A stretch of 64,000 bases of DNA, taken from sequence record PQ505080.1; one strand, given 5' to 3'. The stretch comes from Escherichia phage HMD-6. Under the pieces are notes generated by a model. The model searched no databases. It saw nothing but the letters and a program-made list of their open reading frames with translations, and was not told the origin of the DNA. Both the position numbers and the translations under genes were made by a program. Below, one piece after another: positions 55,186 to 57,541 of this stretch. Numbering within the stretch: the first letter of the stretch is position 1; each line of letters starts with the position of its first letter.

Positions 55186-55536
55186 TCAGTAGATGTTTTG
55201 TTTAATCTCTATTCCAAACTTTTTAAACGAGTCAGCAGCAAGCATGAATTTACGAGCCGCTGATGGGTTAGAAGTATGCACGAAAATCTTCACGTTGTCA
55301 ACTACAGGAGGCTTACCAAATACAAATTTTTCCTCCAGCATAGACAGGCAATCGTACCCTTCAAATACCTCTCCAAGATCGTTGTCCATGTGCCACTCAG
55401 AAACGCGCCTGTAGAGCTTTCCCTTATCGTTAATAAAATCCATAAACTCAGAGGAATTCTTTAGCCAAAGAGCATCTGGGAGCCCATAATTTGACGGATC
55501 TCTCAAGTCATCCAGCCACACAATCAACTTCTTCAT
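55186..55536 (-). CDS. hypothetical protein (116 aa)
   Basis: ORF track; between Sir2-like and ligase genes. Confidence 0.5.
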   Translation of the reverse strand: MKKLIVWLDDLRDPSNYGLPDALWLKNSSEFMDFINDKGKLYRRVSEWHMDNDLGEVFEGYDCLSMLEEKFVFGKPPVVDNVKIFVHTSNPSAARKFMLAADSFKKFGIEIKQNIY

Positions 55537-56468
55537 TGCATATAGTCCTCGTTGTGGAAATAGCAGTCAAGTATCTCACGGCGTTCCTGCTCCAGGAGGC
55601 AATTCCACACATCTTCTGTGTAGTTTCTACGAATGAAGTTTACCATGCCGTAAAACTCTTCGTCAACACGTTTAAAGATATCATCATCCCAAATCTTCCA
55701 AGCTTTACCCCTCATTACGGCCTTCCGTGCCAAATAGTATGGAGACTTGATCTTCAGCTGCAGATCATAAGGGTAGTAAGGCTTACGAATCATATACCCT
55801 TCACCTCTTGTTTCTGCAGCTAATTCTTTTGCATAGCTGAACGGAATTTCACGCACAGTGTGAGGACGTTTTGCACCAAGGTATTTGGCAATCCCATCTA
55901 AAGCTGCTTCTGGTAGCATTATTCCAGAATCATTATATCTGCAACCTATCAAATATGCGCCATGATCTTCCCGAACAATATGCGGATCTGAAGGGTGACA
56001 AATTTCAAACATGAATGTCATGTTTTCATGACCCATAACCTTCTTGATAAGATCTAAATTACCACATTGCTCCTGGATTGTTTCCTTTGCAAGGTTACAA
56101 TATGGAGAATCAAGAGACCCTGTTGTTGAGAACAACAGTTCACCTTTGTGAGATGATACCACACCAAGGAATCCGTTCTTTTTCTCTACCGCCGTCACAA
56201 GCTTATTGTCAGGCAGGTTGGTGGAGTTTTCTCCCAAGTTAAACACTTTTGTGAAGGGCCATGCCACAACATTTCCTTCATTACCGACAACAATGCCCCG
56301 GCACTCCAGTAAACGAGGGGACAAATGCCATAAATTGTTGTAAAATACTTTTCTGGCATATTTATAGATCTTTAACCCAAGATCTGGGTAATATCTACTG
56401 GTTACAAGACCTTTGTCAACTAGGTCGTCTGCATTAAAATACTTCATCATACGTTCCTCATTTGTCAT
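55533..56468 (-). CDS. RNA ligase-like nucleotidyltransferase (Rnl1-like)
   Basis: Motif I EKKNGF (KxNG, no DNA-ligase Arg), motif IV EGYMIRK, motif V LKIKSP. Confidence 0.55.
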   Translation of the reverse strand: MTNEERMMKYFNADDLVDKGLVTSRYYPDLGLKIYKYARKVFYNNLWHLSPRLLECRGIVVGNEGNVVAWPFTKVFNLGENSTNLPDNKLVTAVEKKNGFLGVVSSHKGELLFSTTGSLDSPYCNLAKETIQEQCGNLDLIKKVMGHENMTFMFEICHPSDPHIVREDHGAYLIGCRYNDSGIMLPEAALDGIAKYLGAKRPHTVREIPFSYAKELAAETRGEGYMIRKPYYPYDLQLKIKSPYYLARKAVMRGKAWKIWDDDIFKRVDEEFYGMVNFIRRNYTEDVWNCLLEQERREILDCYFHNEDYMQ

Positions 56469-56510
56469 TTTGTCAGTCTATCCTGCCACACAAATAACCT
56501 AGTGTCAACA

Positions 56511-56539
56511 CTTGAAATTAACAAAACAGTTAGGTATAC
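56511..56539 (+). promoter_or_regulatory. sigma70-type promoter
   Basis: TTGAAA-17-TATACT upstream of kinase gene. Confidence 0.5.
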
Positions 56540-56568
56540 TATCGTTGAAATTAAAACGGAGGATTACT

Positions 56569-56979
56569 ATGTCTAAAATGCTATATATCGTGCGTGGTCT
56601 ACCAGGGTCTGGCAAATCAACACTGGCAAATGCGCTATCTTTAGAAGGTCTGTATCCACATTTTGAGAACGACATGTTCTGGTACGACGATGATGGAAAT
56701 TACAACTGGGATGCAAGTAAAGTAACACTTGCAGCAAAATGGTGCAAAGATAACGTAGAAGATATGATGCGTATGGGATACGACCGTGTCGTGGTAAGTA
56801 ATACGTTTACAAAAGAAAAACATGTGCAAGAATATATTGACATGGCAATTAGCTATGGGTACAATTATACAGTAATCGTGGTTGAAAACCGCCACGGTAA
56901 TAAGAGCATTCATGATGTTCCAGATAGGGTTGTGGACCGTATGGAGCGTGAGCTTAAAAACTGCATTAAACTTAAATGA
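56569..56979 (+). CDS. P-loop polynucleotide kinase-like protein
   Basis: ATG 56569 after GGAGG; Walker A GLPGSGKST at N-terminus; 136 aa. Confidence 0.6.
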   Translation: MSKMLYIVRGLPGSGKSTLANALSLEGLYPHFENDMFWYDDDGNYNWDASKVTLAAKWCKDNVEDMMRMGYDRVVVSNTFTKEKHVQEYIDMAISYGYNYTVIVVENRHGNKSIHDVPDRVVDRMERELKNCIKLK

Positions 56980-56986
56980 GGAATGT

Positions 56987-57541
56987 ATGAAATATTTTGT
57001 AACAAGCGATACACACTTTCTCCACCAGCGAGTCATGGAGTTTGATTCATGTCAAAAACACAGATCTCAGTATGATCGCAATCTTGACAGTATGAATGCA
57101 GGAATCATCGCCGAGTGGAACTCTGTTGTGTCACCGGAAGACACTGTGTTTCACTTGGGCGATATTGCATGCACTAAGGATAAGAATATCAACAAATTGC
57201 TCCCAGATGTTCTAAATATGTTGAACGGACATATTATTCTTGTTCGTGGTAACCATGACACAAGGACGACTGTCAGAATTATGAAAGAGTTCGGTCATGA
57301 GGTTGTAGATTATTACGAGCTTCGACACAACAAGAATTTGATCTGTATGAGCCATTACCAGTTTGCAAAGTGGAACAGAAAGCCTCACGGATCAGTCCAA
57401 CTGTTCGGTCATGCTCACGGAACCACACAGCAGTTGTTTGGCAGGCAGTTTGATGTCGGTTGGGATGTGTGGGGGAGACTCTTACCATTAGAAGAGGCAT
57501 ACCGTATTGCAATGAGTCTTGCTATTGACAGCGGGGAGTAA
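56987..57541 (+). CDS. calcineurin-like metallophosphoesterase
   Basis: SDTHF, LGDI, GNHD motifs; ATG 56987 after GAGG. Confidence 0.7.
   Translation: MKYFVTSDTHFLHQRVMEFDSCQKHRSQYDRNLDSMNAGIIAEWNSVVSPEDTVFHLGDIACTKDKNINKLLPDVLNMLNGHIILVRGNHDTRTTVRIMKEFGHEVVDYYELRHNKNLICMSHYQFAKWNRKPHGSVQLFGHAHGTTQQLFGRQFDVGWDVWGRLLPLEEAYRIAMSLAIDSGE

Follow-up and report, generated by a model that had tools for sequence, protein, structure and literature searches.

The DNA analyzed here, hereafter called the window, is a stretch of 64,000 nucleotides (nt) from Escherichia phage HMD-6 (sequence record PQ505080.1). We found that its region at 55533–57541 encodes, with a probability of about 0.75, a phage RNA end-healing and sealing system, the conserved core of which consists of three separate enzymes. 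Gene identities, catalytic motifs, predicted folds, linkage, fusions and operon layout were computed, whereas the substrates, the reaction order and a role in counter-defense were inferred. The core comprises the following features, given with their longest or assigned open reading frames (ORFs):

55533–56468, minus strand: predicted Rnl1-like ATP-dependent RNA ligase, longest ORF of 311 amino acids
56469–56568, no strand: divergent intergenic region between ligase and kinase, 100–118 bp depending on the ligase start
56569–56979, plus strand: P-loop kinase of the Pnk-like AAA_33 family, predicted polynucleotide 5′-OH kinase, 136 amino acids
56987–57541, plus strand: calcineurin-type binuclear metallophosphoesterase, 184 amino acids, beginning 8 nt past the kinase stop

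An earlier annotation of this DNA, referred to as the original prediction, had proposed a three-enzyme RNA repair cassette at this place. The three ORFs and all of the motifs that it quoted (KKNG, EGYMIRK, LKIK, GLPGSGKST, SDTHF, GDI and GNHD) were present, and the ligase indeed lies on the minus strand, divergent from the kinase–phosphoesterase pair across 100–118 bp. The window was assigned to Vequintavirus (rV5/FV3-like), with 96–98% identity to many GenBank phages. Megablast with the 2.36-kb segment at 55186–57541 gave matches in 119 phage records, nearly all of them Escherichia phages of the rV5/FV3 group, and 117 of the 119 covered at least 80% of the segment at 90–99% identity. The conservation at this level across 117 records indicates that the ORFs are real genes and did not arise by chance.

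The Pfam and PHROG families were scanned over ten ORFs between 51776 and 59178. Judging from homologues and the annotation of phage Bas52, the ligase probably starts at M7 (56450), which would give a protein of 305 amino acids. It contains the motifs VEKKNGFLG, RGEGYMIRK and LQLKIKSPYY, and matched PF09511 RNA_lig_T4_1 with 54.8 bits (cut-off 28.3) and phrog_562 at 5.7e-66. Direct sequence searches of the PDB, either with the single sequence or with the profile of 21 sequences, returned no match, so that its kinship to T4 Rnl1 was recognizable only by means of hhalign and a structure prediction. In hhalign, the alignment of 21 ligase family sequences matched T4 Rnl1 with a probability of 97.6% (E 4.8e-12) over T4 residues 33–248, that is, the nucleotidyltransferase domain. 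Ten residues invariant among the 21 homologues (R57, K74, F76, K96, G99, E155, E223, G224, K239 and K241) aligned to T4 Rnl1 R54, K75, F77, K99, G102, E159, E227, G228, K240 and K242, respectively. The nucleotidyltransferase motifs K96-x-N-G99 (motif I), E155, E223-G224 (motif IV) and K239-x-K241 (motif V) are intact. The N-terminal elements specific to Rnl1 are also kept, as ECR57G and PFTK74-V-F76-N in the phage ligase versus ECR54G and K75-F-F77 in T4; mutational studies in T4 have established that Arg54, Lys75 and Phe77 of Rnl1 are essential.

The AlphaFold model of the ligase (pLDDT 88) showed a nucleotidyltransferase domain and a helical C-terminal region of ~65 residues. Its best Foldseek matches were T4 Rnl1 (1.0e-12), Palaeococcus Rnl3 (1.2e-12) and the ligase domains of fungal Trl1 (1.2e-12). 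The first DNA ligase appeared at 2e-5, which is ~10^7-fold weaker in E-value, and no structure of a Pnkp ligase domain was found among the top 50 matches. As far as sequence and fold go, these results support the placement of the ligase in the RNA-ligase clade of T4 Rnl1, Trl1 and Rnl3, and not among the DNA ligases. The Rnl1-like assignment of the original prediction was thereby upheld, with both the profile comparison and the fold favoring RNA over DNA ligases.

The longest ORF of the kinase extends from 56512 to 56979 on the plus strand. Its start was assigned to the ATG at 56569, ahead of which a ribosome-binding site, GGAGG, is found at 56558–56562, and the protein contains VRGLPGSGKSTL. 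It matched PF13671 AAA_33 with 43 bits (cut-off 27), phrog_2071 at 1e-58 and phrog_505, labeled 'polynucleotide kinase', at 3e-10. The P-loop G10-L-P-G-S-G-K16-S17 and D35 were invariant among 28 homologues, and further family invariants were W58-C59, V-S-N-T at 76–79, E83, E-N-R-H-G at 106–110 and H115. BLASTP against T4 Pnkp aligned the P-loop alone; hhalign matched the two with a probability of 95.5% (E 1.5e-8) and placed D35 on the T4 general base Asp35. A PDB profile search with the kinase family listed the stand-alone Mucorales tRNA-ligase kinases, PSTK, T4 Pnk, Pnkp1 and CthPnk at the top. For the structural model (pLDDT 84), the query-normalized TM-score was 0.77 with both T4 Pnk (2ia5) and CthPnk (4gp6) and 0.72 with PSTK, and ranged from 0.38 to 0.58 with the UMP-CMP, gluconate, shikimate and adenylate kinases. 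The P-loop protein that had been described as polynucleotide-kinase-like therefore appears to be Pnk-like in its predicted fold and its profile matches.

In the phosphoesterase, the motifs SDTHF, LGDI and RGNHD are present. It matched the Metallophos families PF12850/PF00149 with 31 bits (cut-offs 27 and 21.5) and phrog_547 at 1e-51. Among 24 ligase-linked homologues, S7-D8-x-H10, G58-D59, G88-N89-H90, H123 and G141-H142-x-H144 were invariant, and the binuclear-metal motifs DxH, GD, GNH[DE], H and GHxH are all intact, in agreement with the calcineurin type proposed before. The nearest solved structure in the PDB profile search was Aquifex aq_1665 (5.8e-23), followed by the diesterases GpdQ and MJ0936. 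A lambda-phosphatase or Pnkp-type domain was considered and ruled out, as the same search yielded neither 4j6o nor 1g5b. The protein is predicted to be an end-healing enzyme with 2′,3′-cyclic phosphodiesterase and 3′-phosphatase activity.

The linkage of the three genes was analyzed by a ligase-based survey, in which 80 viral contigs with homologues (36–88% identity) were grouped at 80% identity of the ligase, giving 51 clusters. Of these, 47 contained a kinase homologue, which in 40 lay within 600 bp of the ligase or was fused to it; the corresponding counts for the phosphoesterase were 45 clusters and 33 within 600 bp. Two co-directional gene orders, phosphoesterase–ligase–kinase and kinase–ligase–phosphoesterase, were dominant, and the divergent layout was specific to the rV5 type. 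Furthermore, in two viral clusters (13 contigs) the kinase and ligase form a single ORF, with AAA_33 and RNA_lig_T4_1 in one protein of 433 amino acids.

A second survey was based on six kinase homologues picked without regard to the ligase (L numbers are our labels for individual loci). An overlapping Metallophos gene followed the kinase in two of the six, and one lay 1.1 kb upstream in a third; in two of these three contexts an Rnl2-type ligase (PF09414) was nearby. In L092 (4501–5495 and 8667–9725), the kinase adjoins a stand-alone HAD_PNKP phosphatase of 150 amino acids (PF25109), with an Rnl1 3 kb off. This arrangement amounts to a 'split T4 Pnkp', and the phosphatase partner is therefore interchangeable. 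In L090 (4187–7254), the kinase overlaps Rnl1, directly followed by phosphoribosyl-pyrophosphate synthetase-like, NAPRTase and Macro genes and a DNA ligase. One of the six contexts had no recognizable partner. Since the kinase pairs either with Metallophos and Rnl2-type proteins or with HAD_PNKP and Rnl1, its partners have been swapped for functional analogues.

Fusions were also observed in bacteria. A protein of ~710–770 amino acids in Leptolyngbyaceae joins AAA_33, Metallophos and RNA_lig_T4_1, giving a kinase–phosphoesterase–ligase triple fusion. Its kinase and phosphatase modules matched the CthPnkp structures 4gp6 (3.5e-11) and 4j6o (2.5e-24), respectively, and its ligase domain is 30–34% identical to the phage ligase. 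RtcB (L113 8466–9647) is located 1.6 kb downstream of this fusion. The ligase module of the L113 fusion gave no PDB hit, and no Hen1 was found among the five scanned ORFs neighboring it. In Cardiobacteriaceae, the gene after a kinase–ligase fusion encodes a phosphoesterase from the same subfamily as the phage enzyme. Adjacency has thus been kept despite rearrangement, the genes are fused in all combinations and each partner has been replaced by functional analogues, which argues that the three enzymes act in one pathway. The ligase, kinase and phosphoesterase are a widely conserved core, and the proposal that they work as one set is supported by linkage (47 and 45 of 51 clusters) and by the gene fusions.

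Several loci in these surveys had features of their own. The fused kinase–ligase proteins are ~420–433 amino acids long, as in L036 (7560–8825) and L042 (574–1872), and also in L038, L043–L046 and L050–L053; no phosphoesterase homologue was detected near these fusions. L036 additionally has an Rnl2-type ligase (PF09414) 1.7 kb downstream of the fusion and a GIY-YIG protein. L090 is an unrelated phage contig in which another RNA repair pair stands beside NAD (nicotinamide adenine dinucleotide)-related genes. The tri-domain protein of L113 (4726–6861; Leptolyngbya sp. PCC 7375) is chromosomal and its phosphoesterase is lambda-phosphatase-like; similar proteins were observed in L101 and L125.

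Reasoning from T4 Pnkp/Rnl1 and from bacterial Pnkp, we propose that the core would rejoin RNAs, probably tRNAs, that have been cleaved by defense nucleases of the host, in the following way. The metallophosphoesterase would open and then remove the cyclic phosphate, or remove a 3′-phosphate, to leave a 3′-OH. The Pnk-like kinase would place a phosphate onto the 5′-OH. The Rnl1-like ligase, adenylylated on Lys96 (numbering of the 311-amino-acid ORF), would activate the 5′-phosphate and seal the break.

Several observations weigh against this assignment of functions. The ligase is without the long C-terminal tRNA-specificity domain of T4 Rnl1 (T4 residues ~255–374): the hhalign alignment ends at T4 residue 248, and after motif V there follow ~65 residues in four to five short helices. 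With only ~65 residues past motif V, there is no recognizable form of the T4 tRNA-specificity domain. In addition, Lys119 in motif Ia of T4 Rnl1 is replaced by an invariant Thr (T116), and the ligase scored 38.5 bits against the T4 RnlA equivalog model (NCBIfam TIGR02308), the cut-off of which is 242.25. By these scores, the ligase is a member of the broad PF09511 family and not a T4 RnlA equivalog. In the kinase, the equivalent of T4 Arg38, the Arg that binds the 3′-phosphate on the 5′-terminal nucleotide, is absent; W38 occupies this position, where the family consensus is F, and the invariant N78 stands where T4 Pnk has Asp85. Moreover, the Foldseek E-values of the kinase model were alike for Pnk and for nucleotide and sugar kinases, so that TM-scores alone separate the kinase groups. 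The kinase is thus Pnk-like but not a canonical T4-type Pnk, because its fold and profile are nearest to Pnk, yet Arg38 and Asp85 are replaced. As for the phosphoesterase, its aq_1665-type subfamily has no characterized member, and its hhalign probability was 6.8% with lambda NinI and 25% with a cyanobacterial Pnkp-like phosphatase domain. Finally, tRNA is assumed as the substrate, and literature searches found no experimental work, either biochemical or genetic, on RNA repair proteins of rV5 or Vequintavirinae.

The ligase operon continues beyond the core with three accessory genes and a hairpin:

55186–55536, minus strand: cREC (cyclic-phosphate-processing receiver-like), 116 amino acids, its start overlapping the ligase stop by 4 nt
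54416–55177, minus strand: Sir2/sirtuin-family protein, 253 amino acids, 8 nt downstream of cREC
53688–54401, minus strand: candidate MazG-like nucleotide pyrophosphohydrolase, 237 amino acids, after a 14-nt gap from Sir2, last gene of the ligase operon
53663–53681, no strand: GC-rich palindromic hairpin with the terminator consensus on both strands, directly past the MazG-like stop

cREC matched PF20274 with 53.3 bits, and D9, D10, D51 and D53, which form an acidic pocket, as well as S89 and K96, were invariant among 11 homologues. Its role has been predicted previously (PMC9503650, PMC7824862). Sir2 matched PF02146 with 95 bits and phrog_2162 at 2.9e-108, and its NAD-site motifs GAGxSxxSG and TTNVDD and H109 were invariant among 12 homologues. 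The CxxC...CxxC zinc-ribbon module is absent between the catalytic His109 and PNVVFFGE, and just three Cys residues (38, 177 and 192) are found in the protein. The MazG-like protein matched phrog_671 ('nucleotide pyrophosphohydrolase') at 5.4e-22 and gave no Pfam hit; a member of the MazG superfamily belongs to the neighborhood described for phage V5 (PMC9503650). The hairpin, situated between the MazG-like gene and the minus-strand ORFs that come next, has 8 pairs, 6 of them GC, and a T-rich tail on the minus strand. It is the probable end of the ligase–cREC–Sir2–MazG transcription unit, as judged from a consensus scan alone that found 6 sites in total against 3.2 expected. In a PADLOC scan, the kinase had weak hits at the P-loop level alone, and nothing was matched by the ligase, phosphoesterase, Sir2, cREC and MazG-like proteins.

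Of the 51 ligase clusters, 7 contained Sir2, 6 contained cREC and 8 contained the MazG-like gene. At least one of the three occurred in nine clusters, all of them relatives with genomes of ~94–150 kb. Therefore, these genes are lineage-restricted additions and, because most relatives are without them, the branch they form is not essential to the core pathway. In Vequintavirus-type phages, cREC, Sir2 and the MazG-like protein, co-transcribed with the ligase, may serve in an alternative, NAD-linked clearing of a 2′-phosphate or in the processing of by-products. The branch may be a second route, or a co-located NAD-related counter-defense function.

Iyer et al. proposed in 2022 that this branch is itself the main pathway, an NAD-dependent route like that of Trl1/Tpt1 (PMC9503650). 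This proposal overlaps with the favored reading and does not exclude it; as an account of the main pathway, we regard it as unlikely. In it, cREC opens the 2′,3′-cyclic phosphate to a 2′-phosphate/3′-OH end, and joining by the kinase and ligase follows. The sirtuin, acting in the manner of KptA/Tpt1, next moves ADP-ribose from NAD+ to strip the 2′-phosphate; this leaves an ADP-ribose cyclic phosphate as by-product, to be cleared by the MazG-like enzyme together with the metallophosphoesterase. The ligase, cREC, Sir2 and MazG-like genes do lie on one strand, with a 4-nt overlap, gaps of 8 and 14 nt and a terminator-like hairpin, but this co-location could just reflect an early-gene counter-defense island. 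In its favor, cREC and Sir2 have kept their catalytic-type residues invariant; against it, no sirtuin is known as an RNA 2′-phosphotransferase and cREC has never been characterized (PMC9503650). Apart from having been published, the proposal gains from the fit of fungal Trl1 to the ligase model, which is as good as that of T4 Rnl1 (1.2e-12 versus 1.0e-12), and from the Rnl1–kinase pair of L090, which stands beside NAD-salvage and Macro genes. However, the occurrence of Sir2, cREC and the MazG-like gene in 7, 6 and 8 of the 51 clusters, against a near-universal kinase and phosphoesterase, favors a core of ligase, kinase and phosphoesterase.

The two routes might also operate side by side, such that the ligase seals 2′-phosphate ends made by cREC and the zinc-less sirtuin clears the junction 2′-phosphate with NAD+, alongside the metallophosphoesterase route. 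We give this combination a rather slim chance. If true, a bacterial virus would have a counterpart of the tRNA splicing that Trl1/Tpt1 carry out in eukaryotes, with a sirtuin in the place of Tpt1.

The window also contains a separate gene for a DNA ligase, which bears on whether the cassette acts on DNA:

51776–53059: ATP-dependent DNA ligase (Pfam/PHROG), 2.5 kb from the RNA ligase

The kinase, phosphoesterase and ligase could together clean and join phage DNA that has been damaged or nicked, either in the course of replication or after an attack by host nucleases, in company with this DNA ligase; we consider this highly improbable. T4 Pnkp acts on DNA besides RNA, and a DNA ligase homologue occurred in the flanks of 30 of the 80 related loci as well as here. 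However, a dedicated DNA ligase is already encoded by the phage, and Pfam, hhalign and the fold all place the cassette ligase with the RNA ligases (DNA ligases at E of at least 2e-5 versus 1e-12). The phosphoesterase showed a weak match to TIGR04123, the ligase-associated DNA-damage endonuclease PdeM, but its 20.5 bits are far under the cut-off of 150. Furthermore, other phages pair the kinase and phosphoesterase with Rnl2-type RNA ligases, and the cyanobacterial fusion lies near RtcB.

Finally, the idea that each of the three proteins serves a purpose of its own, with the ligase as a tail-fiber attachment catalyst in the manner of the second activity of T4 gp63 and the kinase and phosphoesterase acting on nucleotides, signaling molecules or proteins, can hardly be credited: GenBank and PHROG labels do carry 'tail fiber protein attachment catalyst' over from T4, the kinase is merely a 'nucleotide kinase' in Iyer et al. 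(PMC9503650), and its family (at least 7989 hits, P-loop proteins of ~130 amino acids) is far more widespread than that of the ligase (1681 hits), but adjacency is kept in most of the 51 clusters despite rearranged order, kinase–ligase and kinase–phosphoesterase–ligase fusions exist, partners are replaced by functional analogues, and all catalytic residues of the ligase are invariant, which a purely structural role would not need.

The phage carries its own tRNA genes, which had been noted to lie ~3 kb downstream and were found as a cluster of seven:

60477–61289, plus strand: seven-tRNA cluster (ARAGORN, Rfam and Bas52 annotation), 2.9 kb from the cassette

The cluster encodes tRNAs Arg-UCU, Tyr-GUA, Ser-UGA, Lys-UUU (with an extra arm), Thr-UGU, CAU (Met or Ile2) and Pro-UGG. 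The cluster serves here as context for the repair cassette, to which it may be functionally linked. In related loci, only about half of the representatives (27 of 51) had tRNA genes at a distance of up to 8 kb from the ligase; this raw count, taken without a null expectation or control, is suggestive.

One of the seven tRNAs, at 60946–61042 on the plus strand, is 97 nt long and has UUU (Lys) in its anticodon loop. Its variable region is enlarged by an insertion of 26 nt, which folds into an extra arm of 5 bp; folding of the tRNA gave a minimum free energy of −34.2 kcal/mol (z −4.1). ARAGORN miscalled a 4-base anticodon for it, and the Bas52 annotation gives tRNA-Lys; the same tRNA is found in the 88% relative L003. 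An intron in the anticodon loop of this odd tRNA (97–99 nt), which would have required splicing by the ligase, was ruled out, as Rfam and folding both assign the 26 additional nt to the variable region. Lysine tRNAs do not usually have a long variable arm, and it is tRNA-Lys(UUU) that PrrC-type anticodon nucleases classically attack. In more distant relatives, suppressor-type tRNAs (tRNA-CTA and tRNA-TTA) were observed within 8 kb of the ligase in L060, L061, L063, L066 and L070, and tmRNA in L042 and L066; these genes hint at stop-codon recoding in those phages.

Other features of the surroundings concern transcription and replication:

56512–56540, plus strand: sigma-70-like site, a consensus match alone, within the ligase/kinase intergenic region

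A consensus scan of the divergent intergenic region found no sigma-70-like promoter on the minus strand for the ligase. Within ~54000–58000, the GC skew flips sign and its cumulative curve has a minimum at ~56 kb, which coincides with this intergenic region and with the switch in gene orientation. An HTH_36/DUF6945 protein at 57589–57939 matched PHROGs labeled 'replication initiation protein'. The skew minimum at ~56 kb could be a replication origin or simply a boundary between transcription strands.

The neighborhood is already known. Records matching the region label its genes as 'RNA ligase (1 and tail attachment protein)' and 'phosphoesterase', and the kinase as 'polynucleotide kinase / ATPase / 3′-phosphatase, 5′-polynucleotide kinase'. 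With genes annotated in more than 100 genomes and a neighborhood already published as a prediction for the same phage group, little is added as discovery. The original prediction was right about the three-enzyme core and about predicted healing activities on separate polypeptides, with a metallophosphoesterase instead of the T4 HAD-type enzyme; it overlooked the cREC, Sir2 and MazG-like genes of the ligase operon and the published prediction for phage V5. What the present analysis adds is the conserved core of three, the Rosetta-stone fusions that link them, and the finding that the phosphoesterase belongs to an uncharacterized subfamily distinct from that of bacterial Pnkp.

The value of the cassette therefore lies in a tractable experimental system rather than in discovery. 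Defense systems that cut tRNA, such as PrrC, RloC, PARIS, Retron-Eco7, Cas13 and OLD, are now known to be widespread. To our knowledge, and according to literature searches, in vivo tests of a phage pathway for RNA repair have been made for T4 Pnkp/Rnl1 alone. Because phages of the rV5 group infect E. coli K-12 and one of them, Bas52, is part of the BASEL phage collection, the cassette is a convenient test system. It could show whether split, metallophosphoesterase-based healing and sealing rescues a phage from tRNA-cutting defenses, and what roles are played by aq_1665-type phosphoesterases, cREC domains and phage sirtuins.

The closest published counterpart is the sirtuin-linked RNA repair neighborhood of 'Escherichia phage V5 / Proteus phage Mydo' (Iyer, Burroughs, Anand and Aravind 2022, Viruses 14:1977, section 3.7.3, Fig. 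5f; PMC9503650), which was presented for phage V5 as a predicted NAD-linked RNA repair system. It has the same members, namely sirtuin, T4-like tRNA ligase, cREC, nucleotide kinase, MazG-superfamily pyrophosphatase and calcineurin-like phosphoesterase, and all six genes are adjacent in the window at 53688–57541. That paper is centered on the sirtuin and calls the phosphoesterase 'occasional', whereas our survey showed the reverse, a core of ligase, kinase and phosphoesterase; nothing else differs in substance. In a survey of jumbo phages, the same group stated as a general rule that the partners of ATP-grasp RNA ligases are polynucleotide kinases and phosphoesterases of the HAD, calcineurin-like or HD type (PMC7824862).

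The fungal Trl1 system resembles the phage system in that its ligase domains were among the best structural matches of the phage ligase and the stand-alone Mucorales kinases were the best PDB profile matches of the phage kinase. The proposed roles of phage cREC and Sir2 mirror those of the cyclic phosphodiesterase (CPDase) and Tpt1 in fungi, but the phage neighborhood has no 2H-type CPDase and no KptA/Tpt1 homologue. Clostridium thermocellum Pnkp is described as a kinase–metallophosphoesterase–ligase RNA repair enzyme (PMC2190708, PMC3675462), and bacterial Pnkp, of the Pnkp/Hen1 system, shares the same set of chemistries: P-loop polynucleotide kinase, metallophosphoesterase 2′,3′-phosphatase and ATP-dependent ligase. 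However, bacterial Pnkp is one polypeptide with a lambda-phosphatase-like phosphatase, whereas the phage has three separate ORFs on two strands and an aq_1665-like phosphoesterase. No Hen1 methyltransferase, for which no systematic search was made, was observed beside the cassette, and none of the ten ORFs scanned at 51776–59178 encodes a methyltransferase.

The T4 genome annotation gives the repair of tRNA in prr hosts as the function of rnlA and pseT. T4 Pnkp (pseT) and Rnl1 (rnlA), the counter to PrrC, follow the same logic as proposed for the phage cassette, with a 5′ kinase, healing of 2′,3′-ends and an Rnl1-type ligase, and the nucleotidyltransferase domain of the ligase (hhalign 97.6%) and the kinase domain of Pnkp (95.5%) are homologous to those found here. 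In contrast, the healing phosphatase of the cassette is a separate metallophosphoesterase, whereas that of T4 is an HAD (DxDxT) domain fused to the kinase. The phage ligase is also without the C-terminal tRNA-specificity domain and Lys119 of T4 Rnl1, and the kinase is without Arg38. Furthermore, the three genes are adjacent here, whereas T4 pseT and rnlA are four genes apart (pseT.1, pseT.2, pseT.3 and alc).

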